From IMG/VR virus record IMGVR_UViG_2698536403_000009: 25,897 nucleotides of DNA; one strand, written 5' to 3'. The position numbers and the translations under genes were made by a program. The notes beneath the pieces were generated by a model. The model saw only the letters and a program-made list of their open reading frames with translations, was not told the origin of the DNA and made no database searches. This document shows, piece after piece, positions 2,601 through 25,897 of the stretch (position 1 is the stretch's first letter; the number at the start of each line of letters is the position of its first letter). The DNA is from a virus. Lineage: Duplodnaviria > Heunggongvirae > Uroviricota > Caudoviricetes.

Positions 2601-4189
2601 AACGAACGCCTGTCCTGATTGATGTGAACGGCGTTCCGCTTCGGGAGAGCCTCAGCTACAACGGTGGCGGTGCAGGATTTGGCGGGCAAATGGCAGAGTG
2701 GTTGCCACCCTCGCAGAGTGCCGATGCGGCCCTGCTGCCCGCGTTGCGTCTGGGGAATGCCCGTGCAGATGATCTGGTGCGCAATAACGGAATAGCGGCC
2801 AATGCGGTGGCCCTGCATAAGGATCACATTGTCGGGCATATGTTTCTGATTAGCTACCGTCCGAACTGGCGCTGGCTGGGGATGCGGGAGACCGCGGCAA
2901 AAAGTTTTGTCGATGAGGTGGAGGCGGCCTGGTCAGAATACGCAGAAGGGATGTTTGGTGAGATCGACGTGGAAGGGAAACGCACGTTTACGGAATTTAT
3001 CCGTGAAGGTGTGGGCGTTCATGCGTTTAACGGCGAAATCTTTGTGCAGCCGGTCTGGGATACGGAGAGTACGCAACTGTTTCGTACGCGTTTTAAAGCC
3101 GTGAGTCCGAAACGGGTGGACACGCCAGGACACGGTATCGGGAACCGTTTTCTGCGGGCCGGTGTGGAGGTCGATCGATATGGCCGTGCCGTTGCGTACC
3201 ATATCTGTGAGGATGATTTTCCTCGCTCCGGGAGTGGACGATGGGAACGGATCCCGCGTGAACTACCCACCGGGCGTCCGGCCATGCTGCATATTTTCGA
3301 GCCGGTGGAGGACGGGCAGACCCGTGGAGCCAATCAGTTTTACAGCGTTATGGAACGGCTGAAGATGCTGGATTCCCTGCAGGCAACACAGCTTCAGTCG
3401 GCCATAGTGAAGGCGATGTATGCAGCGACGATTGAAAGTGACCTTGATACCGAAAAGGCCTTTGAATATATCGCCGGTGCGCCGCAGGGGCAGAAGGATA
3501 ATCCGCTTATTAATATTCTGGAGAAGTTCTCCACCTGGTATGACACGAATAGCGTGACGCTGGGCGGTGTCAAAATTCCGCACCTTTTCCCCGGTGATGA
3601 TCTGAAACTTCAGACCGCGCAGGATTCAGACAATGGATTTTCGGCGCTTGAACAGGCGCTGCTGCGGTATATCGCCGCCGGTCTTGGCGTTTCCTACGAA
3701 CAGTTGTCCCGTGATTACTCGAAGGTCAGTTATTCAAGTGCCCGCGCATCCGCCAATGAGTCGTGGCGCTATTTTATGGGGCGGCGAAAATTTATTGCGT
3801 CCCGGCTGGCCACGCAGATGTTTTCCTGCTGGCTGGAAGAGGCACTTCTTCGGGGGATTATTCGTCCGCCACGGGCACGTTTTGATTTTTATCAGGCGCG
3901 ATCAGCCTGGTCACGGGCTGAGTGGATTGGAGCCGGAAGAATGGCCATTGACGGGCTCAAGGAGGTTCAGGAATCAGTGATGCGCATTGAGGCCGGACTG
4001 AGCACGTATGAGAAAGAGCTGGCGCTGATGGGCGAGGATTATCAGGACATTTTCCGCCAGCAGGTCAGGGAATCTGCAGAGCGGGAAAAAGCCGGACTCT
4101 CACGTCCGGTGTGGATAGCGCAGGCGTATCAGCAGCAGATAGCGGAGAGTCGCAGGCCGGAAGAGGAGACAACACCACGTGAGACGTAA
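2597..4189 (+). CDS. B: Portal protein
   Basis: 530 aa, similar to lambda gpB along its length; ATGA overlap with W. Confidence 0.95.
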   Translation: MKRTPVLIDVNGVPLRESLSYNGGGAGFGGQMAEWLPPSQSADAALLPALRLGNARADDLVRNNGIAANAVALHKDHIVGHMFLISYRPNWRWLGMRETAAKSFVDEVEAAWSEYAEGMFGEIDVEGKRTFTEFIREGVGVHAFNGEIFVQPVWDTESTQLFRTRFKAVSPKRVDTPGHGIGNRFLRAGVEVDRYGRAVAYHICEDDFPRSGSGRWERIPRELPTGRPAMLHIFEPVEDGQTRGANQFYSVMERLKMLDSLQATQLQSAIVKAMYAATIESDLDTEKAFEYIAGAPQGQKDNPLINILEKFSTWYDTNSVTLGGVKIPHLFPGDDLKLQTAQDSDNGFSALEQALLRYIAAGLGVSYEQLSRDYSKVSYSSARASANESWRYFMGRRKFIASRLATQMFSCWLEEALLRGIIRPPRARFDFYQARSAWSRAEWIGAGRMAIDGLKEVQESVMRIEAGLSTYEKELALMGEDYQDIFRQQVRESAEREKAGLSRPVWIAQAYQQQIAESRRPEEETTPRET

Positions 4190-5684
4190 TCTTTCACACA
4201 TTATTGCCGCAGCATTCAATGAACCGCTGCTTCTGGAGCCCGCCTATGCGCGGGTTTTCTTTTGCGCGCTCGGGCGCGAGATGGGGGCAGCAAGTCTTTC
4301 GGTACCACAACAGCAGGTACAGTTTGATGCTCCCGGAATGCTGGCTGAAACGGACGAGTACATGGCCGGAGGTAAACGACCAGCCCGTGTTTACAGGGTG
4401 GTGAACGGTATTGCTGTACTGCCGGTGACCGGCACGCTGGTGCACCGGCTGGGGGGTATGCGGCCATTTTCCGGAATGACAGGCTATGACGGTATTGTCG
4501 CCTGTCTTCAGCAGGCAATGGCGGATAGCCAGGTGCGGGGCGTACTGCTGGACATTGACAGTCCGGGCGGGCAGGCCGCCGGCGCGTTTGACTGCGCTGA
4601 CATGATTTACCGCCTCCGTCAGCAGAAGCCGGTCTGGGCACTGTGCAATGACACGGCCTGTTCTGCAGCCATGCTGCTGGCGTCGGCCTGCTCCCGACGG
4701 CTGGTTACCCAGACATCCCGTATCGGCTCCATTGGCGTGATGATGAGCCATGTCAGCTATGCCGGTCATCTGGCGCAGGCCGGTGTGGATATCACGCTGA
4801 TTTACTCAGGGACGCACAAGGTGGATGGCAATCAGTTTGAAGCCTTACCGGCAGAGGTTCGCCAGGACATGCAGCAGCGCATTGATGCGGCGCGCCGGAT
4901 GTTTGCCGAAAAAGTGGCCATGTTTACCGGTCTGTCTGTTGATGCCGTCACGGGAACAGAGGCCGCCGTTTTTGAAGGTCAGTCCGGCATTGATGCCGGG
5001 CTGGCGGATGAATTAGTCAATGCGTCGGATGCCATCAGTGTGATGGCCACGGCGCTGAACAGTAATGTCAGAGGAGGCACTATGCCGCAATTAACTGCAA
5101 CGGAAGCCGCCGCGCAGGAGAACCAGCGAGTGATGGGGATCCTGACATGCCAGGAAGCGAAAGGACGTGAACAGCTTGCCACGATGCTGGCAGGACAACA
5201 GGGCATGAGCGTTGAACAGGCCCGGGCGATTCTGGCCGCGGCGGCACCGCAGCAGCCGGTGGCATCCGCGCAGAGTGAAGCCGATCGCATTATGGCGTGT
5301 GAAGAAGCGAACGGTCGTGAACAACTGGCGGCAACGCTGGCGGCGATGCCGGAGATGACGGTGGAAAAAGCCCGCCCGATCCTGGCGGCTGCACCACTGG
5401 CGGATGCCGGGCCCTCACTTCGTGATCAGATCATGGCCCTGGATGAGGCAAAAGGGGCAGAAGCGCAGGCTGAAAAACTGGCGGCCTGCCCGGGAATGAC
5501 CGTGGAGAACGCCCGGGCTGTGCTGGCTGCGGGATCAGGTAAGGCCGAACCGGTCTCTGCATCCACAACCGCCTTGTTTGAACATTTCATGGCGAATCAT
5601 TCACCGGCAGCGGTGCGGGGTGGCGTGTCACAGACGTCAGCAGACGGTGATGCGGACGTGAAAATGCTCATGGCCATGCCATGA
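4179..5684 (+). CDS. C: Prohead protease / minor capsid protein C (S49 ClpP-like peptidase domain plus C-terminal scaffold-like repeats)
   Basis: GTG start after GAGGAG RBS; N-terminal two thirds resemble lambda gpC (LEPAYARVFFCAL, GIAVLPV.GTLV, SIGVMMSH, IYSGTHKVDGN); 501 aa versus about 439 aa in lambda because of extra C-terminal repeats. Confidence 0.9.
   Translation: MRRNLSHIIAAAFNEPLLLEPAYARVFFCALGREMGAASLSVPQQQVQFDAPGMLAETDEYMAGGKRPARVYRVVNGIAVLPVTGTLVHRLGGMRPFSGMTGYDGIVACLQQAMADSQVRGVLLDIDSPGGQAAGAFDCADMIYRLRQQKPVWALCNDTACSAAMLLASACSRRLVTQTSRIGSIGVMMSHVSYAGHLAQAGVDITLIYSGTHKVDGNQFEALPAEVRQDMQQRIDAARRMFAEKVAMFTGLSVDAVTGTEAAVFEGQSGIDAGLADELVNASDAISVMATALNSNVRGGTMPQLTATEAAAQENQRVMGILTCQEAKGREQLATMLAGQQGMSVEQARAILAAAAPQQPVASAQSEADRIMACEEANGREQLAATLAAMPEMTVEKARPILAAAPLADAGPSLRDQIMALDEAKGAEAQAEKLAACPGMTVENARAVLAAGSGKAEPVSASTTALFEHFMANHSPAAVRGGVSQTSADGDADVKMLMAMP
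5082..5684 (+). CDS. nu3: Nu3-like scaffolding protein, in-frame internal start within C (copy 1)
   Basis: AGGAGG 5 nt upstream of ATG 5082, in frame with C; lambda Nu3 is produced the same way; contains three tandem ~40-aa repeats (I..GREQLA...GMTVE.AR.ILAA). Confidence 0.55.
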   Translation: MPQLTATEAAAQENQRVMGILTCQEAKGREQLATMLAGQQGMSVEQARAILAAAAPQQPVASAQSEADRIMACEEANGREQLAATLAAMPEMTVEKARPILAAAPLADAGPSLRDQIMALDEAKGAEAQAEKLAACPGMTVENARAVLAAGSGKAEPVSASTTALFEHFMANHSPAAVRGGVSQTSADGDADVKMLMAMP

Positions 5685-5720
5685 AGTCAGTGCTGACCAT
5701 CAATATGAGGTTTTAACAAA

Positions 5721-6068
5721 ATGGTGACGAAAACCATCACTGAACAGCGTGCGGAAGTACGTATTTTTGCCGGTAATGATCCGGCTCATACCGCCACAGG
5801 CAGCAGCGGGATTTCTTCTGCAACACCGGCTCTGACGCCCCTGATGCCGGATGAAGCCACCGGGAAACTGGTGGTCTGGGATGGACAGAAAGCCGGTAGT
5901 GCGGTTGGCATACTGGTACTGCCGCTTGAAGGCACAGAGACGGTGCTGACCTATTACAAGTCGGGGACCTTTGCGACGGAGGCAATCCGCTGGCCTGACA
6001 GTGTGGATGAACACAAAAAGGCAAATGCCTTTGCCGGTACAGCCCTGAGTCACGCGGCTCTGCCGTAA
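5721..6068 (+). CDS. D: Head decoration protein D (copy 1)
   Basis: 115 aa; NDPAHTATG...TPLM...KLVVWDG...GILV...YYKSGTF matches lambda gpD. Confidence 0.9.
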   Translation: MVTKTITEQRAEVRIFAGNDPAHTATGSSGISSATPALTPLMPDEATGKLVVWDGQKAGSAVGILVLPLEGTETVLTYYKSGTFATEAIRWPDSVDEHKKANAFAGTALSHAALP

Positions 6069-6125
6069 CACGTTATCAGGCCACCATGGCGGCCTGACTG
6101 ATTTCTGAATGAAAGGAACTGATTT

Positions 6126-6413
6126 ATGGGATTGTTTACGACCCGCCAGTTACTCGGTTATACCGAACAAAAAGTGAAATTCCGTGCGCTGTTTCTGGAG
6201 CTGTTTTTCCGCCGTACGGTGAATTTCCACACCGAAGAGGTGATGCTGGACAAAATTACCGGAAAAACGCCGGTGGCGGCCTATGTCTCCCCGATCGTTG
6301 AAGGAAAAGTGCTTCGCCATCGCGGTGGTGAAACCCGCGTGTTACGTCCATACTGCTGGACATTGACAGTCCGGGCGGGCAGGCCGCCGGCGCGTTTGAC
6401 TGCGCTGACATGA
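6126..6413 (+). pseudogene. Truncated major capsid gene fragment (E'), first ~75 codons fused out of frame to C sequence
   Basis: First 75 residues identical to the intact E at 7934; homology to E stops at 6349, then the frame runs into C-derived sequence and terminates at 6413. Confidence 0.8.
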
Positions 6414-7492
6414 TTTACCGCCTCCGTCAGCAGAAGCCGGTCTGGGCACTGTGCAATGACACGGCCTGTTCTGCAGCCATGCTGCTGGCGTCGGCCTGCT
6501 CCCGACGGCTGGTTACCCAGACATCCCGTATCGGCTCCATTGGCGTGATGATGAGCCATGTCAGCTATGCCGGTCATCTGGCGCAGGCCGGTGTGGATAT
6601 CACGCTGATTTATGCCGGGGCGCACAAGGTGGATGGCAATCAGTTTGAAGCGTTGCCGGCAGAGGTTCGCCAGGATATGCAGCAGCGGATTGATGCGGCG
6701 CACCGGATGTTTGCCGAAAAAGTGGCGATGTATACCGGGTTGTCTGTGGATGCGGTCACGGGAACAGAGGCCGCCGTTTTTGAAGGTCAGTCCGGCATTG
6801 AGGCCGGGCTGGCGGATGAATTAATCAATGCGTCGGATGCCATCAGTGTGATGGCCACGGCGCTGAACAGTAATGTCAGAGGAGGCACTATGCCGCAATT
6901 AACTGCAACGGAAGCCGCCGTGCAGGAGAACCAGCGAGTGATGGGGATCCTGACATGCCAGGAAGCGAAAGGACGTGAACAGCTTGCCACGATGCTGGCA
7001 GGACAACAGGGCATGAGCGTTGAACAGGCCCGGGCGATTCTGGCCGCGGCGGCACCGCAGCAGCCGGTGGCATCCGCGCAGAGTGAAGCCGATCGCATTA
7101 TGGCGTGTGAAGAAGCGAACGGTCGTGAACAACTGGCGGCAACGCTGGCGGCGATGCCGGAGATGACGGTGGAAAAAGCCCGCCCGATCCTGGCGGCTGC
7201 ACCACTGGCGGATGCCGGGCCCTCACTTCGTGATCAGATCATGGCCCTGGATGAGGCAAAAGGGGCAGAAGCGCAGGCTGAAAAACTGGCGGCCTGCCCG
7301 GGAATGACCGTGGAGAACGCCCGGGCTGTGCTGGCTGCGGGATCAGGTAAGGCCGAACCGGTCTCTGCATCCACAACCGCCTTGTTTGAACATTTCATGG
7401 CGAATCATTCACCGGCAGCGGTGCGGGGTGGCGTGTCACAGACGTCAGCAGACGGTGATGCGGACGTGAAAATGCTCATGGCCATGCCATGA
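6350..7492 (+). pseudogene. 5'-truncated copy of C (lacks N-terminal ~120 codons and its start); contains an intact Nu3-like ORF
   Basis: Homologous to C from codon ~122 onward; no upstream start or RBS in frame (the track ORF 6410 starts at an internal Met). Confidence 0.75.
6890..7492 (+). CDS. nu3: Nu3-like scaffolding protein (copy 2)
   Basis: Same AGGAGG-ATG start as copy 1 at +1808 offset; intact to the stop at 7492. Confidence 0.5.
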   Translation: MPQLTATEAAVQENQRVMGILTCQEAKGREQLATMLAGQQGMSVEQARAILAAAAPQQPVASAQSEADRIMACEEANGREQLAATLAAMPEMTVEKARPILAAAPLADAGPSLRDQIMALDEAKGAEAQAEKLAACPGMTVENARAVLAAGSGKAEPVSASTTALFEHFMANHSPAAVRGGVSQTSADGDADVKMLMAMP

Positions 7493-7528
7493 AGTCAGTG
7501 CTGACCATCAATATGAGGTTTTAACAAA

Positions 7529-7876
7529 ATGGTGACGAAAACCATCACTGAACAGCGTGCGGAAGTACGTATTTTTGCCGGTAATGATCCGGCTCATACC
7601 GCCACAGGCAGCAGCGGGATTTCTTCTGCAACACCGGCTCTGACGCCCCTGATGCCGGATGAAGCCACCGGGAAACTGGTGGTCTGGGATGGACAGAAAG
7701 CCGGTAGTGCGGTTGGCATACTGGTACTGCCGCTTGAAGGCACAGAGACGGTGCTGACCTATTACAAGTCGGGGACCTTTGCGACGGAGGCAATCCGCTG
7801 GCCTGACAGTGTGGATGAACACAAAAAGGCAAATGCCTTTGCCGGTACAGCCCTGAGTCACGCGGCTCTGCCGTAA
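7529..7876 (+). CDS. D: Head decoration protein D (copy 2)
   Basis: Protein identical to copy 1. Confidence 0.85.
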   Translation: MVTKTITEQRAEVRIFAGNDPAHTATGSSGISSATPALTPLMPDEATGKLVVWDGQKAGSAVGILVLPLEGTETVLTYYKSGTFATEAIRWPDSVDEHKKANAFAGTALSHAALP

Positions 7877-7933
7877 CACGTTATCAGGCCACCATGGCGG
7901 CCTGACTGATTTCTGAATGAAAGGAACTGATTT

Positions 7934-8962
7934 ATGGGATTGTTTACGACCCGCCAGTTACTCGGTTATACCGAACAAAAAGTGAAATTCCGTGCGCTGT
8001 TTCTGGAGCTGTTTTTCCGCCGTACGGTGAATTTCCACACCGAAGAGGTGATGCTGGACAAAATTACCGGAAAAACGCCGGTGGCGGCCTATGTCTCCCC
8101 GATCGTTGAAGGAAAAGTGCTTCGCCATCGCGGTGGTGAAACCCGCGTGTTACGTCCGGGCTACGTCAAGCCCAAACACGAATTTAATTACCAGCAGGCG
8201 GTTGAGCGCCTTCCTGGTGAAGATCCGGCTCAGCTGAACGACCCGGCCTACCGTCGTCTGCGTATCATTACCGATAACCTCAAACAGGAAGAGCACGCCA
8301 TTGTCCAGGTGGAAGAAATGCAGGCGGTGAATGCCGTGCTGTATGGCAAATACACCATGGAAGGGGATCAGTTTGACACGGTTGAGGTGGATTTCGGGCG
8401 CTCTGAAGGAAATAACATTGAGCAGGCTGACGGTAAAAAATGGTCTGAGCAGGACCGTGATACGTTTGATCCGACGCATGATATTGACCTCTACTGCGAT
8501 CAGGCCAGCGGCCTTGTGAATATCGCCATTATGGACGGTACGGTCTGGCGTCTGCTGAATGGCTTTAAGCTGTTCCGCGAAAAACTGGATACCCGTCGCG
8601 GCTCAAATTCACAACTCGAAACGGCAGTGAAAGATCTGGGCGCAGTGGTGTCCTTCAAGGGGTATTACGGCGATCTGGCCATTGTGGTGGCGAAAACGTC
8701 TTATGTGGCAGAGGACGGTACCGAAAAACGTTATCTGCCGGAGGGCATGCTGGTGCTGGGGAATACGGCGGCAGAGGGGATTCGTTGCTATGGAGCCATT
8801 AAGGATGCACAGGCGTTGTCTGAAGGAGTGGTGGCTTCTTCCCGTTACCCGAAACACTGGCTGACCGTGGGCGATCCGTCCTGTGAATTCACCATGACGC
8901 AGTCCGCTCCGCTGATGGTGCTGCCGGATCCTGATGAGTTTGTGGTGGTACAGGTGAAATAA
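7934..8962 (+). CDS. E: Major capsid protein E (intact copy)
   Basis: 342 aa; similar to lambda gpE throughout (YVSPIV.G.V...GG, PGYVKPKHE, DPAYRR.RII, RRGSNS.LETAVKDLG, SAPLM.L.DPDEFV); AAGGA RBS. Confidence 0.95.
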   Translation: MGLFTTRQLLGYTEQKVKFRALFLELFFRRTVNFHTEEVMLDKITGKTPVAAYVSPIVEGKVLRHRGGETRVLRPGYVKPKHEFNYQQAVERLPGEDPAQLNDPAYRRLRIITDNLKQEEHAIVQVEEMQAVNAVLYGKYTMEGDQFDTVEVDFGRSEGNNIEQADGKKWSEQDRDTFDPTHDIDLYCDQASGLVNIAIMDGTVWRLLNGFKLFREKLDTRRGSNSQLETAVKDLGAVVSFKGYYGDLAIVVAKTSYVAEDGTEKRYLPEGMLVLGNTAAEGIRCYGAIKDAQALSEGVVASSRYPKHWLTVGDPSCEFTMTQSAPLMVLPDPDEFVVVQVK

Positions 8963-8970
8963 TCCGTGAG

Positions 8971-8999
8971 CGGGGGCGAAATGCCCCCGTGTCTTTTTT
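8971..8999 (+). terminator. Intrinsic terminator-like hairpin after E
   Basis: 7-bp GC stem cgggggc/gcccccg (8971-8977 / 8983-8989), loop gaaat, followed by tgtcttttttc. Confidence 0.55.
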
Positions 9000-9013
9000 C
9001 ACAGGAGGCTGAG

Positions 9014-9397
9014 ATGGCAACAAAAGAAGAAAATCTGAATCGTCTTCGTCAACTGGCTGGCCTGCTGGGGCGCGAGGCGGATATGTCGGGGAGTGCTGCG
9101 GATATTGCTCAACGTGTGTCTGAGTGGGAAGAGGAGCTTGCTGTTTCCCCGGAGGGCATTATGCACTCTGATGAGAGCGGGGCTGATCAAAATCACACAG
9201 ACGATGGTGAGCAGTTGAACAACACGGATGCTCCGGATGATGTTAAAGCCGTCCGGGTACGGAAGTGCCTGCAAGTAATGGGGTATTGCCCGGAGACAGG
9301 TCGTCCCGTTGAGCTGGCGTTACGGGGTATGCGTGTTCTGGTGCCATCATCACTGGCAACGGCCATGATACAGCACGGAACGGCTGAATATGCGTGA
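9014..9397 (+). CDS. FI: DNA packaging protein FI
   Basis: Start ATG 9014 after AGGAGG; acidic middle region and position between E and FII as in lambda; weaker sequence match than neighbours. Confidence 0.8.
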   Translation: MATKEENLNRLRQLAGLLGREADMSGSAADIAQRVSEWEEELAVSPEGIMHSDESGADQNHTDDGEQLNNTDAPDDVKAVRVRKCLQVMGYCPETGRPVELALRGMRVLVPSSLATAMIQHGTAEYA

Positions 9398-9743
9398 TTT
9401 TCAGAATGCCTTTGATGCTGCCCTTGCCGGGGTGGACAGTACGATCGTTGAAGTGATGGGGATCCGTGCGCAGTTCACCTCCGGAGCACAACGTGGCGGC
9501 GAAGTTCAGGGGGTTTTTGACGATCCGGAGTCGCTGGGTTTTGCCGGTGGCGGGGTCCGTATTGAAGGAAGCAGCCCGTCATTATTTGTGCGGACGGATA
9601 CGGTGCGTGCCGTGCGGCGTGGTGACACGCTGACCATTAACGGCGAGATGTTCTGGGTGGATCGTGTTTCTCCGGATGACAGGGGAAGCTGTTATCTCTG
9701 GCTCAACCGTGGGCAACCCCCCGCAGTTAACCGGCGACGATAA
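9390..9743 (+). CDS. FII: Head-tail joining protein FII
   Basis: 117 aa; GVFDDPE...GSSPSLFVRTD.VR..RRGDTLTI....FWVDRVSPDD.GSC.LWL.RG.PPAVNRRR matches lambda gpFII. Confidence 0.9.
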   Translation: MRDFQNAFDAALAGVDSTIVEVMGIRAQFTSGAQRGGEVQGVFDDPESLGFAGGGVRIEGSSPSLFVRTDTVRAVRRGDTLTINGEMFWVDRVSPDDRGSCYLWLNRGQPPAVNRRR

Positions 9744-9758
9744 ACGCAGGGTGAAATT

Positions 9759-10334
9759 ATGGCGATAAAAGGGCTTGCTCAGGCGATTGATAATCTGAGC
9801 CGGGTTCGTAAAAACGCCATTCCGGCGGCTTCAGCAATGACGATTAACCGCGTGGCCACAACGGCGATTAATCAGTCTTCATCACAGGTTGCCCGGGAAA
9901 CCAGGGTGAGACGGAAACTGGTAAAGGAACGGTCCAGACTGAAACGGGCCACGGTCAGAAATCCGAATGCAAAAATTATCGTTAACCGCGGTGATCTTCC
10001 TGTGATTAAGCTGGGGATCAGAATGCTGGGGCGTCGTCCGGACAGCATACTCAAAGCCGGTCAGCATCGTTATCAGCGGGCATTTATCCAGCGATTAAAT
10101 AATGGGCGCTGGCATGTTATGCAACGTCTTCCCCAGGCCAGATATGAGAAGGGCAATGACGACAAGGGCAGGAAAAAGCGTAATCGCCTTCCTATTCAGG
10201 TGGTGAAAATCCCGATGGCGGCCCCACTGAAACAGGCGTTTGATGAAAACGTTGACCGTATCCGGCGTGAACGTCTGCCCGGAGAACTGGCATACGCGCT
10301 GAAACAACAGCTGAGGATTGCGATAAAACGATGA
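9759..10334 (+). CDS. Z: Minor tail protein Z
   Basis: 191 aa; MAIKGL.QA..NLSR...INRVA...VARET.VRRKLVKER.RLKRATV...GRWHVMQR...IPMA.PL...RIRRERLP.EL.YAL matches lambda gpZ. Confidence 0.9.
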   Translation: MAIKGLAQAIDNLSRVRKNAIPAASAMTINRVATTAINQSSSQVARETRVRRKLVKERSRLKRATVRNPNAKIIVNRGDLPVIKLGIRMLGRRPDSILKAGQHRYQRAFIQRLNNGRWHVMQRLPQARYEKGNDDKGRKKRNRLPIQVVKIPMAAPLKQAFDENVDRIRRERLPGELAYALKQQLRIAIKR

Positions 10335-10726
10335 AACATACTGATATCCGTGCGGCAGTGCTGGATGCACTCGAGCAGCATGAACACGGGGCGACGCTGT
10401 TTGATGGTCGCCCCGTTGTTTTTGACGAAGAGGATTTTCCTGCGATCGCGGTTTATCTGACGGATGCAGAGTATACCGGTGAAGAGCTGGATGCAGATAC
10501 CTGGCGGGCCACACTGCATATTGAGGTGTTTTTACCGGCACAGGTACCGGATTCGGAGCTGGATTCGTGGATGGAAAGCCGGATTTATCCGGCGATGACC
10601 GCGATCCCGGCACTGGCAGGACTGATTACCACGATGGTTACGCAGGGCTATGAGTATCGTCGTGATGACGATATGGCGTTATGGAGTTCTGCAGATCTGA
10701 CTTATTCCATTACATACGAGATGTGA
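10331..10726 (+). CDS. U: Minor tail protein U (tail terminator)
   Basis: 131 aa, nearly colinear with lambda gpU ([44 protein letters not shown]). Confidence 0.9.
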
Positions 10727-21822: not shown

Positions 21823-21833
21823 GTGGGGTGAAT

Positions 21834-22283
21834 ATGGCAGTAAAGATTTCAGGTGTACTGAAAGACGGCACAGGAAAACCGGTACAGAACTGCACAATCC
21901 AGCTGAAAGCAAAACGTAACAGTACCACGGTGGTGGTGAACACGGTGGCCTCTGAAAATCCGGATGAAGCCGGTCGTTACAGCATGGACGTTGAGTACGG
22001 TCAGTACAGCGTCATTCTGTTGGTGGAGGGCTTCCCGCCGTCACATGCCGGGACCATCACCGTGTATGAAGATTCTCAACCCGGTACGCTGAATGATTTT
22101 CTCGGTGCCATGTCGGAGGATGACGTCCGGCCGGAGGCACTGCGTCGTTTTGAACTGATGGTGGAAGAAGCGGCGCGTCACGCTGAGGAGGCGAAGAAGA
22201 ATGCCGGAGAGGCGGAGACGTCCGCGAGGAATGCCGGCATATCAGCCAGTCAGGCATCAATGCGTCGGATGCCATCAGTGTGA
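21834..22283 (+). pseudogene. stf: Side tail fiber stf, N-terminal fragment (~141 codons of stf then 8 junk codons and stop)
   Basis: MAVKISGVLKDGTGKPVQNCTIQLKA.RNSTTVVVNTV.SENPDEAGRYSMDVEYGQYSVIL nearly identical to lambda Stf N-terminus; homology ends at ~22256 where C-derived sequence begins. Confidence 0.8.
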
Positions 22284-23053
22284 TGGCCACGGCGCTGAAC
22301 AGTAATGTCAGAGGAGGCACTATGCCGCAATTAACTGCAACGGAAGCCGCCGTGCAGGAGAACCAGCGAGTGATGGGGATCCTGACATGCCAGGAAGCGA
22401 AAGGACGTGAACAGCTTGCCACGATGCTGGCAGGGCAACAGGGCATGAGCGTTGAACAGGCCCGGGCGATTCTGGCCGCGGCGGCACCGCAGCAGCCGGT
22501 GGCATCCGCGCAGAGTGAAGCCGATCGCATTATGGCGTGTGAAGAAGCGAACGGTCGTGAACAACTGGCAGTTACGCTGGCGGCGATGCCGGAGATGACG
22601 GTGGAAAAAGCCCGCCCGATCCTGGCTGCTTCACCGCAGGCGAATGCCGGACCATCACTCCGTGATCAGATCATGGCCCTGGATGAGGCAAAAGGGGCTG
22701 AGGCGCAGGCTGAACAGCTGGCTGCCTGCCCGGGAATGACCGTGGAGAGCGCCCGGGCTGTGCTGGCTGCGGGATCAGGTAAGGCAGAACCGGTCTCTGC
22801 ATCCACAACCGCCCTGTTTGAACATTTCATGGCGAACCATTCACCGGCTGCGGTCCAGGGGGGCGTGTCACAGGCGTCAGAAGACGGTGATGCGGACGTG
22901 AAAATGCTCATGGCCATGCCATGAAGTCAGTGCTGAACATCAATACGAGGTTTTAACAATATGGTGACGAAAACCATCACTGAACAGCGTGCGGAAGTAC
23001 ATATTTTTGCCGGTAATGATCCGGCTCACACCGCCACAGGCAGCAGCGGGATT
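22256..23053 (+). repeat. Inserted head-gene cassette (third, diverged copy): last ~22 codons of C, complete Nu3-like ORF with RBS, C-D intergenic, first ~31 codons of D
   Basis: Homology to 5016-5815 / 6824-7623 starts at tcaatgcgtcggatgcc (22256) and ends after ggcagcagcgggatt (23053); roughly 3-5% diverged from copies 1 and 2 (my estimate from protein differences and a few DNA mismatches). Confidence 0.8.
22322..22924 (+). CDS. nu3: Nu3-like scaffolding protein (copy 3, diverged), embedded within the stf locus
   Basis: Intact ORF with AGGAGG RBS; about 10 aa substitutions relative to copies 1 and 2. Confidence 0.5.
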   Translation: MPQLTATEAAVQENQRVMGILTCQEAKGREQLATMLAGQQGMSVEQARAILAAAAPQQPVASAQSEADRIMACEEANGREQLAVTLAAMPEMTVEKARPILAASPQANAGPSLRDQIMALDEAKGAEAQAEQLAACPGMTVESARAVLAAGSGKAEPVSASTTALFEHFMANHSPAAVQGGVSQASEDGDADVKMLMAMP

Positions 23054-23392
23054 CCGCAGCGAAGACATCCGAGACGAACGCGAAAGCGTCGGAAACCAGC
23101 GCAGAATCCTCAAAAACGGCTGCCGCATCGTCCGCCAGTTCGGCGGCGTCATCGGCATCATCTGCGTCTGCTTCAAAAGATGAGGCGACCAGACAGGCGT
23201 CAGCAGCGAAGGGCAGCGCCACGACGGCATCCACGAAGGCGACAGAGGCAGCTGGCAGTGCGACGGCGGCAGCTCAGAGCAAAAGTACGGCGGAATCCGC
23301 GGCAACGCGCGCTGAGACAGCGGCAAAACGGGCAGAGGATATTGCATCCGCCGTGGCGCTTGAGGATGCGAGCACGACGAAAAAGGGGATAG
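22961..23392 (+). pseudogene. D' fragment: first ~31 codons of the head decoration gene fused out of frame to stf sequence (Arg-rich junk tail)
   Basis: [31 protein letters not shown] matches D N-terminus; after 23053 the frame reads stf DNA out of frame. Confidence 0.7.
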
Positions 23393-23979
23393 TTCAGCTC
23401 AGCAGTGCGACTAACAGCACTTCCGAGTCACTGGCGGCAACGCCAAAAGCCGTTAAGGCCGCGTATGAGCTGGCTAACGGGAAATACACCGCACAGGATG
23501 CAACGACAGCACAGAAAGGGATAGTTCAGCTTAGCAACGCGACCAACAGCACATCTGAAATGCTGGCGGCAACGCCAAAGTCGGTAAAGGCAGCCTATGA
23601 CCTTGCTACGGGGTCTGCCGGTGATCATACTCATGGTAATGGTATTCGTTGGCCAGGAGGCGGCGGTTCTGCGTTAGCATTTTATGATGGCGGTGGGTTC
23701 ACTTATGTCCAGGATTCACAGTATCAAGTAAGCCCGGGGACTTCTTCCCGTAGATCGTATTATCAACGTATTCAGACACAGTCAGCAGGTGCTCATACCC
23801 ACTCGCTGTCTGGTACTGCAGCAAGTTCTGGCGCACATGCACATACTGTAGGTATTGGTGCGCATACGCACTCCGTTGCGATTGGTTCACATGGACACAC
23901 CATCACCGTTAACGCTGCTGGTAACGCGGAAAACACCGTCAAAAACATCGCATTTAACTATATTGTGAGGCTTGCATAA
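23053..23979 (+). pseudogene. stf: Side tail fiber stf, C-terminal portion (Ala/Ser-rich shaft plus His-rich tip domain); no start codon of its own upstream of GTG 23353
   Basis: Frame 1 from ~23053 encodes ...[41 protein letters not shown]... and C-terminus [61 protein letters not shown], matching the lambda Stf C-terminus. Confidence 0.8.
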
Positions 23980-24563
23980 TGGCATTCAGAATGAGTGAAC
24001 AAGCACGGACCATAAAAATTTATAATCTGCTGGCCGGAACTAATGAATTTATTGGTGAAGGTGACGCATATATTCCGCCTCATACAGGTCTGCCAGCAAA
24101 CAGTACCGATATTGCACCACCAGATATTCCTGCTGGCTTTGTGGCTGTTTTCAACAGTGATGAGGCATCGTGGCATCTCGTTGAAGACCATCGGGGTAAA
24201 ACGGTTTATGACGTAGCGTCAGGGGACGAGTTATTTATTTCTGAACTCGGTCCGTTACCGGAAAATGTTACCTGGTTATCGCCGGAAGGGGAGTTTCAGA
24301 AGTGGAACGGCACAGCCTGGGTGAAGGATACGGAAGCAGAAAAAATGTTCCGGATCCGGGAGGCGGAAGAAACAAAAAACAACCTGATGCAGGTAGCCAG
24401 TGAGCATATTGCGCCGCTTCAGGATGCTGCAGATCTGGAAATTGCAACGGAGGAAGAAACCTCATTGCTGGAAGCCTGGAAAAAGTATCGGGTGTTGCTG
24501 AACCGTGTTGATACATCAACTGCACCTGATATTGAGTGGCCTACGAACCCTGTCAGGGAGTAA
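23979..24563 (+). CDS. tfa: Tail fiber assembly protein Tfa
   Basis: 194 aa, same size as lambda Tfa; TAATG overlap with stf stop; conserved C-terminal [24 protein letters not shown]. Confidence 0.9.
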
Positions 24564-24612
24564 TCATTGGGATTATGCCGCAGCACGTCTTAAGCAAGAA
24601 CGTGCTGCGGTT
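24402..24612 (+). repeat. Direct repeat (3' end of tfa plus hairpin), left copy
   Basis: About 85% identical to 25451-25662 (gagcatattgcg...gatgctgcagatctggaaattgcaacggaggaagaa...cgtgctgcggtt). Confidence 0.8.
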
Positions 24613-24627
24613 GGATGCTATTTTTTC
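24578..24627 (+). terminator. Hairpin with downstream T-run after tfa (weak terminator-like)
   Basis: 10-bp stem ccgcagcacg/cgtgctgcgg (24578-24587 / 24601-24610), 13-nt loop, then ttggatgctattttttcc; overlaps the 3' end of the minus-strand methyltransferase gene. Confidence 0.35.
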
Positions 24628-25286
24628 CCTGAAGCGGAAAACATTACTACAGTACCTTGAACCTTGGTTTTAACATTCTCGAAATGCTCTGAGAGTATAT
24701 GTGTTAAGCCTTCTTCGGAATCTTTTGTGTTTGAAAAGATGCCTTTCTGATTGTAAATGCGCATCAGTTTTTGACCGAAGCTATTGTGCACAACTCCATC
24801 GCCAAGAATTGTGGCTCCGTATAGAGTTCCATCGTCAGTTAAGGCCTGCGCCGCATTGCGTATTACACAGCTTTTTGTAGATATATTTCCAGGCAGGCAG
24901 TGAAGAAGGTAAAACATGGAAATGGAATCAAATTGACCATGTAACGCCGCGGGATAAGGTTCAAAAACATCATGGCTAATTTTATGTTTAATTTTTGATT
25001 CCCCAGCCCTTGTAGATGCCGCGTTCAGGCTAGCTTCGTTCAAATCCATTAAAGATATCAGACTACTCTCAGGTACGTGAGTAAGGTAAAACCCAGTTCC
25101 AACACCAATATCCAGATGGTTGTTACCTACATGTTCCAGAAAGTGTGGAAGAAGGTGTTCCTTTGTAGGACATCCCCATGCAAGCCGATTTGATACTCCC
25201 AAAACCCACCAGTCATAAAGCTTTAGGGTAAGTGGTGTGTAAATTTTAGCCCCATCATCTGTGTTTTTTTTCATTGATTTCACCAT
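24618..25286 (-). CDS. Class I SAM-dependent methyltransferase (moron; substrate unknown). Likely true start at the second Met (25274) which has a GGTGA RBS
   Basis: Minus-strand ORF of 222 aa; glycine-rich motif I LDIGVGTGFY followed by acidic LMDLN (motif II-like) and DSISMFYLLHCLP; lower GC than flanking phage genes. Confidence 0.75.
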   Translation of the reverse strand: MVKSMKKNTDDGAKIYTPLTLKLYDWWVLGVSNRLAWGCPTKEHLLPHFLEHVGNNHLDIGVGTGFYLTHVPESSLISLMDLNEASLNAASTRAGESKIKHKISHDVFEPYPAALHGQFDSISMFYLLHCLPGNISTKSCVIRNAAQALTDDGTLYGATILGDGVVHNSFGQKLMRIYNQKGIFSNTKDSEEGLTHILSEHFENVKTKVQGTVVMFSASGKK

Positions 25287-25342
25287 GTTATAGTTTTATT
25301 TGTGAATTAAATCAATTATGGCGATGAATTACAAGGGGTTAA

Positions 25343-25612
25343 ATGCTGCCGCAGCATAGCGATATTGAAATAGCCTGGTATGCTTCGATACAGCAGGAGC
25401 CGAATGGCTGGAAGACCGTCACCACACAGTTCTACATCCAGGAATTCAGTGAGTATATTGCGTCACTGCAGGATGCTGTAGATCTGGAAATCGCAACGGA
25501 GGAAGAAAGATCGTTGCTGGAGGCATGGAATAAATATCGGGTATTGTTGAATCGTGTTGATACATCAACTGCACCTGATATTGAGTGGCCTGCAAATCCT
25601 GTCAGGGAGTAA
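25343..25612 (+). CDS. Tfa-like protein fragment (tail fiber assembly C-terminal domain only)
   Basis: 89 aa; C-terminal 50 aa ([48 protein letters not shown]) ~85% identical to the Tfa C-terminus, N-terminal part unrelated; AAGGGG RBS. Confidence 0.65.
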
Positions 25613-25662
25613 TCATTGGGATTATGCCGCAGACACGTCGTATGCAGGAACGTGCTGCGGTT
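25451..25662 (+). repeat. Direct repeat (tfa 3' end plus hairpin), right copy
   Basis: See left copy 24402-24612. Confidence 0.8.
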
Positions 25663-25726
25663 AGTTTGTGAGCTTTCGATAGTGGTTGTTATTTTTGCCC
25701 TTATTTGTTCCGGAGGCCATGGTTCA

Positions 25727-25897
25727 ATGGTCCGTCTGCCCCCTGTGGTGATGTCAGCAAAATCAGCCACTGCGCGAACCACAATAGCCCGGGAAGATGC
25801 TGAAGATCACCAGGTAAAGCTATCAGCGCAGAAACTGGAAGAACTGCTCGCATCAATGGTTAAGGATGAGGTTGATCGCAATGATGGGATTTATTGA
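25727..25897 (+). CDS. Hypothetical small protein (56 aa), stop codon coincides with the window end
   Basis: ATG 25727 preceded by GGAGG at 9-nt spacing; charged, helix-prone sequence (KLSAQKLEELLASMVKDEV); no recognisable homology. Confidence 0.3.
   Translation: MVRLPPVVMSAKSATARTTIAREDAEDHQVKLSAQKLEELLASMVKDEVDRNDGIY

Follow-up and report, generated by a model that had tools for sequence, protein, structure and literature searches.

The present study deals with ybcY, a gene for a class I S-adenosylmethionine (SAM)-dependent methyltransferase, and with the cassette that carries it near the end of a virus record (Caudoviricetes; IMG/VR record IMGVR_UViG_2698536403_000009), the whole 25,897-nucleotide (nt) stretch of which is referred to here as the window. 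The right arm of a lambda-like prophage closes the window with J, lom, a side tail fibre gene and the tail fibre assembly gene tfa, the last of which shares 92% nt identity with lambda orf-194. Following tfa, the slot holds a hairpin (HP1), ybcY on the minus strand, a shorter tfa-like reading frame (tfa'), a second hairpin (HP2) and a conserved flank (Table 1). The minus-strand open reading frame (ORF) of 222 amino acids (aa) that an initial annotation, made from the sequence alone, had placed right after tfa is present at that position.

Table 1. Features of the ybcY cassette and its surroundings, in window positions.
Feature	Position	Strand	Description
tfa	23979-24563	+	Intact lambda-type tail fibre assembly gene, 194 aa; Pfam Caudo_TAP, E 1e-44
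R1, left direct repeat	24387-24612		tfa 3' end (about 59 codons) plus hairpin
35-bp stretch identical in R1 and R2	24549-24583 = 25598-25632		From the alignment of the repeats
Hairpin HP1	24577-24611		3' end common to tfa (+) and ybcY (-)
ybcY	24618-25286	-	ORF of 222 aa for a class I SAM-dependent methyltransferase; M5 at 25274 is the probable start (218-aa product)
ybcY promoter, TTGATT-17-TATAAC	25287-25315	-	-35 at 25315-25310, -10 at 25292-25287
tfa' (tfaX-like)	25343-25612	+	89-codon ORF
R2, right direct repeat	25436-25662		Cassette-type through 25567; lambda-type tfa 3' end plus hairpin from 25568
Hairpin HP2	25626-25661		Fold -24.1 kcal/mol, z-score -2.47
Conserved non-coding flank	25662-25690		3' of the hairpin in many lambdoid phages (lambda HP2, SPF_0923, HK97, mEp460, Stx phages)
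DUF4376/tail-fibre-like pseudogene remnant	25709-25897, exits window	+	RefSeq annotation of UTI89, 55989 and EFF60; PHROG 7703 and 1141

The two direct repeats of the tfa 3' end that the initial annotation had described around the methyltransferase gene proved real and about 15 bp longer than it had given, each comprising C-terminal codons of tfa (about 59, compared with the about 50 noted) and a hairpin. Across 226 bp the repeats are 88% identical, in one block of 197 nt (24387-24583 and 25436-25632, 88%) and a second of 29 nt (24584-24612 and 25634-25662, 90%), with a single-base indel within the hairpin, and a blastn comparison of the two gave 88.5% across 227 columns; this similarity far exceeds chance. 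Folding analysis revealed an energy of -28.6 kcal/mol (z-score -4.35) for HP1 on the plus strand and of -25.4 kcal/mol (z-score -4.40) on the minus strand, with a U-rich tract 3' of the hairpin on the plus strand and none on the minus strand.

The gene belongs to the ybcY cassette, which is common and already annotated in K-12 and thousands of genomes, and is not new. Its product matched PHROG 2132 ("unknown function") over 218/218 positions (E 4e-157), the 823-bp ybcY core of the window shares 98.9% nt identity with the copy in K-12 derivatives, and the record of phage PhiR26_1 carries the note "putative uncharacterized protein YbcY". In K-12 derivatives, ybcY lies within the DLP12 remnant between two tfa fragments, followed by appY-ompT-envY, which we take to be the arrangement named tfaD-ybcY-tfaX. 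The DLP12 copy thus has the same gene, the same order (tfa fragment, minus-strand ybcY, tfa' fragment) and the same divergent promoter spacer; it differs in that ybcY is frameshifted, making K-12 a natural ybcY null, tfa is 5'-truncated and tfa' is stopped ahead of appY-ompT-envY, whereas ybcY and tfa are intact in the window and the cassette leads into HP2, the DUF4376 remnant and, in relatives, attR at ompW. For the distribution of the gene, the 823-bp core, which excludes the repeats, was searched at an identity of at least 95% in 5426 complete E. coli genomes and was found in 3844 of them (71%), at 4893 places in total with one to four per genome, placing ybcY among the most widespread prophage cargo genes of this species. 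The full 1.9-kb block of tfa, ybcY, tfa' and flank was recovered from 1126 genomes, including UTI89, S88, APEC O1 and 55989, and the cassette also occurs in the cultured temperate phages 2G7b, ev243 and the PhiR series.

Comparison with related prophages uncovered an indel polymorphism at this position, so the gene is not universally present there, and the cassette was found to be present or absent as a block, as the initial annotation had supposed. In E. coli EFF60 this prophage is likewise found at ompW, but there tfa, the hairpin and the DUF4376 remnant follow one another directly and the cassette is absent; a synthetic empty-site query aligned with EFF60 in one piece at 99.1%. This exact empty site, with its junctions inside the repeats, is of the R1 type through 24548 and of the R2 type from the hairpin on, and the switch therefore lies inside the 35-bp stretch identical in both repeats. 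In lambda, tfa and its hairpin are followed by ea47 on the minus strand, a second hairpin and the same conserved flank, without ybcY; ea47 thus occupies the same slot in the same orientation, but it encodes an unrelated 410-aa protein and its second hairpin lacks a tfa remnant. A crossover between R1 and R2 that deletes the cassette would yield exactly the EFF60 structure, and so would a Campbell-type insertion of the circularised cassette. The three-state slot (empty, ea47, ybcY) provides a worked example of how homologous recombination at a module boundary may move morons between phages.

Salmonella phage SPF_0923 has neither ybcY nor ea47 in the slot after tfa and the hairpin. The genes sitD, sitC and sitB of a manganese/iron transporter come next on its minus strand (3085-5657, with SitB incomplete in this stretch) and constitute another cargo at the same tfa-hairpin boundary. 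The hairpin together with the about 30 nt that follow it (window 25622-25690) forms a conserved non-coding element that recurs in 156 phage records (among them HK97, mEp460, HK106, 2H10 and many Stx-converting phages), as a rule in a single copy at the end of the tail gene block; lambda (NC_001416) has two copies (22575-22612 and 24161-24219) that bracket ea47. The 34-nt core of HP2 (GCCGCAG...CTGCGG) is identical in alignment to the second lambda copy, and the stem pairing survives a C-G to A-T double change between lambda and SPF_0923 on one side and HP1 of the window on the other. A late-operon terminator and a recombination boundary are both candidate roles for this element.

The right-hand repeat had initially been read as a copy of the adjacent tfa 3' end; instead, it appears to derive from another, divergent tfa, of which it retains the 3' part as a 5'-truncated and decaying remnant travelling with ybcY. 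The tfa' product covers only positions 75-130 of the 131 in the Caudo_TAP profile (56 positions), and in tblastn searches it resembles other Tfa proteins from about residue 18-27 (for lambda, from residue 27 at about 25421) through to its end, such that the protein homology reaches further upstream than the DNA repeat. The first approximately 20-26 tfa' codons were found only in records with the cassette. In 2G7b and IAI39 the reading frame has lost 7 bp, in K-12 it is interrupted by a TGA stop, and RefSeq lists it as a pseudogene in UTI89 and 55989. In the window tfa' is open and matches PHROG 2341 over its full length, yet it has neither a full-length Caudo_TAP domain nor a frame that stays intact across relatives. 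In PhiR26_1, 2G7b and IAI39 the similarity to the window stops at 25567/25568, after which an alpha/beta hydrolase gene and ompT follow. The tfa' of the window has itself recombined with a lambda-type tfa end. Moreover, the left tfa piece is also a mere fragment in 2G7b and IAI39, and both arms therefore behave as portable homology. A simple tandem duplication of R1 as the origin of R2 was rejected in view of the 12% difference between the repeats and of the homology upstream of the DNA repeat, and also since the remnant accompanies the cassette beside unrelated upstream genes.

Some further matches were noted over the same stretches. The Rfam family IS009 (RF02111) matched 24322-24520 at 223.8 bits (threshold 117) and 25366-25569 at 113.3 bits, just under the threshold; this family, described as a small RNA, may represent a conserved tfa coding or pseudogene stretch rather than an RNA, as coding conservation can explain the match. 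A weak match to CssrB was seen over the hairpin (32.6 bits, threshold 76). A 45-codon ORF on the plus strand (24536-24673) takes in the stop codon of tfa, the hairpin and the 3' end of ybcY; it is listed in RefSeq as a hypothetical protein (WP_001309429.1), is annotated as a "nucleocapsid protein" in K-12 derivatives, and is probably a spurious call.

The motif TTGATT-17-TATAAC was read in the window on the minus strand directly upstream of the ybcY ORF, and ybcY is predicted to carry its own sigma-70 promoter in this prophage, independent of the surrounding operon. A genomic SELEX (systematic evolution of ligands by exponential enrichment) study of K-12 lists the same hexamers as a constitutive RpoD promoter of ybcY bound by RNA polymerase, marks the spacer HNS and gives ybcY and tfaX as divergent neighbours (PMC3946193). 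A consensus scan revealed a second promoter match, TTAACC-16-CATAAT, at 25342-25315. In addition, the guanine-plus-cytosine (GC) content of ybcY is 0.41, and 0.36 at third codon positions, compared with 0.50-0.63 in the upstream tail genes, in agreement with the lower GC and the opposite strand recorded in the initial annotation.

The moron concept goes back to Hendrix and Juhala, with lom and bor as lambdoid examples. The ybcY gene shares with these its own promoter, a deviant composition, presence or absence in otherwise collinear phages and a position at a module boundary; it differs from them in that lom and bor encode envelope proteins with known phenotypes, whereas YbcY is a cytoplasmic-type enzyme. 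The position equivalent to the lambda b region, which had also been proposed at the outset, holds as well, with the cassette lying between tfa and the attachment site. The cassette is likely a moron: a self-contained unit that separates tfa, the last of the late genes, from the attachment site.

The product of ybcY is a class I SAM-dependent methyltransferase, as evidenced by both profile searches and structure prediction, each of which returned a methyltransferase fold. The ORF passed four Pfam gathering cut-offs, namely Methyltransf_12 (37.5 bits, cut-off 30), Methyltransf_23 (29.0, cut-off 27), Methyltransf_25 (27.7, cut-off 27) and Methyltransf_11 (24.6, cut-off 21.2). An AlphaFold model built from an alignment of 89 homologues (predicted local distance difference test 90.3, predicted template modelling score 0.87) displayed a seven-stranded alpha/beta fold with two N-terminal helices in one domain. 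Motif I corresponds to LDIGVGTG at residues 58-65, of which D59, G61, G63 and G65 are invariant in the 89 homologues. In class I methyltransferases, the acidic residue ending strand 2 binds the SAM ribose; its counterpart in YbcY, D81 in LMDLN, is likewise invariant and ends the strand at 76-81 in the model, bearing out both motifs named by the initial annotation. Altogether, 47 alignment columns are invariant, the SAM motifs and putative pocket residues among them. The length of the homologues (218 aa) and a -10 box that directly adjoins the first ATG make M5 the probable true start, with a very short leader before it. No evident signal peptide was found in YbcY.

The fold and the profiles of YbcY resemble those of small-molecule, lipid and quinone methyltransferases rather than those of DNA methyltransferases. 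A viral fold search of BFVD with the model returned generic methyltransferases only, and the top Foldseek match was the R-type PmtA (PDB 8YS9; E 3e-12, template modelling score 0.63-0.67), a bacterial phosphatidylethanolamine N-methyltransferase whose single class I domain (about 210 aa) has its active site covered by two N-terminal helices (PMC11446283). The invariant Tyr-x-x-Trp in the N-terminal helix of YbcY (Y24, W27) recalls Tyr10 and Trp13 of Rt-PmtA, and Y24, H129, S121 and H167, all invariant or nearly so, are candidate equivalents of PmtA Tyr10, His117, Ser120 and His147. The NCBIfam PmtA profile gave a weak match in 59 of the 89 family members, the best E value of 1.5e-7 being well under the cut-off, and the window protein scored 15.7 bits (E 0.0098) against NF045882, the cut-off of which is 390 bits. 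Membership of the PmtA family was rejected on these profile scores.

Homologues of YbcY with 56-68% identity were detected in Salmonella, Enterobacter, Yersinia, Citrobacter, Aeromonas, Erwinia and a Pasteurellaceae genome as single genes with unrelated neighbours, some near insertion sequence elements, some on plasmid-like contigs and some among prophage-remnant cargo (sodC, dinI, sopA). At nine homologue loci across genera, no conserved neighbour hinting at a pathway was found, nor did restriction genes lie next to the homologues examined. Since the homologues stand alone in unrelated contexts, YbcY evidently works alone. In Citrobacter braakii (5001-10657), a 68%-identical homologue is located by torS in a cluster that also contains sodC, dinI and genes for a transthyretin-like protein and a SopA-type effector; the whole resembles the cargo-bearing end of a Gifsy-like prophage that has decayed.

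Any partner genes had been expected past the window end; none is present there in near-identical prophages, which continue either to the DUF4376 remnant and attR or to attP, int and xis. In UTI89 and 55989 the block is followed by the DUF4376 pseudogene remnant, a truncated ompW (attR) and yciE-trp, and in relatives of this kind the ompW fragment lies about 300 bp beyond the remnant at the window end. Record 204576, which represents the phage form, continues after the block with attP, an integrase with Arm-DNA-bind and Phage_integrase domains, and an excisionase. The cassette is essentially the entire b region in these ompW-site and phage-form relatives. A DinI-family fragment that RefSeq places upstream of ybcY in IAI39 is not visible in the three minus-strand frames of the window.

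Purifying selection acts across the YbcY protein family. Comparison with the Enterobacter homologue gave a ratio of nonsynonymous to synonymous substitution rates (dN/dS) of 0.11, and comparison with the Nissle allele one of 0.17, this second value being based on only 5 synonymous and 3 nonsynonymous differences. Furthermore, ybcY remains intact in Nissle, where the prophage is down to int'-tfa'-ybcY-ompT, the flanking int and tfa fragments have decayed and the right-hand tfa' is lost, demonstrating that the gene can be kept even where the prophage has shrunk to a few hundred bases on each side. The cluster of the 222-aa protein comprises 6589 member sequences.

The following course of events is proposed. 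The cassette would be gained and lost by homologous recombination between conserved tfa 3' ends and hairpins, with gain through either a Campbell-type single crossover of an excised circle or an unequal crossover between phage genomes, and the reverse event between R1 and R2 would delete 1.05 kb. Once in place, ybcY may be transcribed from the prophage apart from the late operon and damped by H-NS, and the 218-aa enzyme would act alone on a substrate found in any enterobacterial cell. Rather than DNA, this substrate would most likely be a small and possibly lipid-soluble molecule (a quinone, a xenobiotic or the head group of a phospholipid), and ybcY could then be a lysogenic-conversion or fitness gene rather than one with a virion or restriction-related function. 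A more far-reaching version is a long shot: as an enzyme of lysogenic conversion, YbcY would methylate a host molecule associated with the membrane (for instance the phosphatidylethanolamine head group or a quinone), and the tfa end with its hairpin would be a dedicated landing pad at which lambdoid phages swap such cargo (ybcY, ea47) by homologous recombination. If true, relief of H-NS silencing would allow the prophages of most E. coli strains to change the chemistry of the envelope or of respiration.

Several points weigh against the proposed course. Insertion and deletion are both compatible with these data, and a single recombination event does not suffice, since the 3' part of R2 (25568-25597) has no match in either the DLP12-type cassette or EFF60. 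HP1 begins 7 nt past the ybcY stop and is a candidate ybcY terminator, but no U-tract follows it on the minus strand. The K-12 frameshift and the existence of truncated clusters of 161 aa (445 members) and 130 aa (30 members) show that ybcY is dispensable in some lineages, and a K-12 ybcY mutant, in which the gene was already frameshifted, was without effect in one published assay. Also, the list of structural neighbours is flat, and the lipid or quinone reading draws on weak, sub-threshold similarities. A search of the literature on ybcY and prophage moron methyltransferases found no functional study, substrate or phenotype; the mentions of ybcY comprise the promoter table (PMC3946193), a description of the ompT context and the negative mutant result.

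From the frameshift in K-12, the truncated clusters, the H-NS mark on the promoter spacer and the silent K-12 mutant, one might take ybcY for a decaying, functionless passenger that persists in a recombination-prone and rarely purged corner of the prophage, all the more since E. coli alleles differ at few sites and the within-species dN/dS is poorly determined. Such neutrality is unlikely, given a family dN/dS of about 0.1, the 47 invariant columns with the SAM motifs among them, the intact gene in the minimal Nissle remnant with its decayed flanks and the 6589 full-length members compared with 445 in the main truncated form. Moreover, the adjoining tfa' decays, whereas ybcY does not.

The place of ybcY in a classic lysogenic-conversion slot by the attachment site, its wide distribution in prophages and the envelope-related nature of other cargo in the region (lom upstream; ompT or sitABCD in relatives) would also suit a single-gene anti-phage or superinfection-exclusion factor, for example one modifying an envelope receptor or a metabolite needed by incoming phages. 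This role is nonetheless very improbable: known defence families remained unmatched (best PADLOC E 0.009), members of the family are also found as single chromosomal genes remote from any phage, and the literature gave no experimental hint.

Orphan DNA methyltransferases of the Dam-like and C5 types, with a SAM-binding Rossmann fold, occur in temperate phages without a partner endonuclease, and YbcY is likewise a phage-borne, SAM-dependent enzyme of Rossmann fold with no such partner. It differs from them in lacking the catalytic motif IV and a target-recognition domain, the model consisting of a single 218-aa domain, and in having small-molecule enzymes as structural neighbours. Direct reading of the 222-aa sequence found no (D/N/S)PP(Y/F/W), no PP dipeptide, no PCQ and no ENV, upholding the absence of the DPPY/NPPY and PCQ motifs recorded at the outset. 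No DNA methyltransferase was among the top structural or profile matches, no significant PADLOC match was obtained, and the homologues do not sit beside restriction genes. A nucleic-acid methyltransferase, either an orphan DNA enzyme acting against restriction or an RNA enzyme reprogramming translation, is accordingly regarded as highly improbable. A role in tail fibre formation, with YbcY modifying Stf or Tfa or the 89-aa tfa' serving as an alternative chaperone, could appeal to the tfa sequence on both flanks and to the open tfa' with its PHROG 2341 match, yet is barely credible for a gene on the opposite strand with its own promoter that is kept where the tail genes are gone (Nissle, K-12) and absent from lambda and the otherwise matching EFF60 prophage, next to a tfa' that is frameshifted or stopped in 2G7b, IAI39 and K-12, spans 56/131 Caudo_TAP positions and has first codons confined to cassette records.

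In addition to the cassette, rearrangements were observed elsewhere in the window. The side tail fibre gene stf (21828-23979) is broken by a 798-bp segment at 22256-23053; its N-terminal ORF (21828-22283) matches Pfam phage_tail_N, and the C-terminal part resumes in a different frame, open from about 23020, without residues corresponding to approximately 543-912 of UTI89 Stf. The insert consists of the 3' end of an S49 head protease gene and the start of a head decoration gene, and represents a third copy, 96-100% identical to 5017-5813 and 6824-7621. In none of the 5426 complete E. coli genomes did a place cover at least 80% of 21900-23400; the junction is therefore peculiar to this source and is either a rare rearrangement or an assembly chimera. 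Furthermore, a head protease/scaffold segment of about 1.27 kb occurs twice (4543-5813 and 6351-7621), 1808 bp apart; two compared 300-nt blocks of it are 99-100% identical, the 798-bp stf insert matches each copy at 96%, and the doubling suggests either a recent duplication of tandem-like type or an artefact of assembly.

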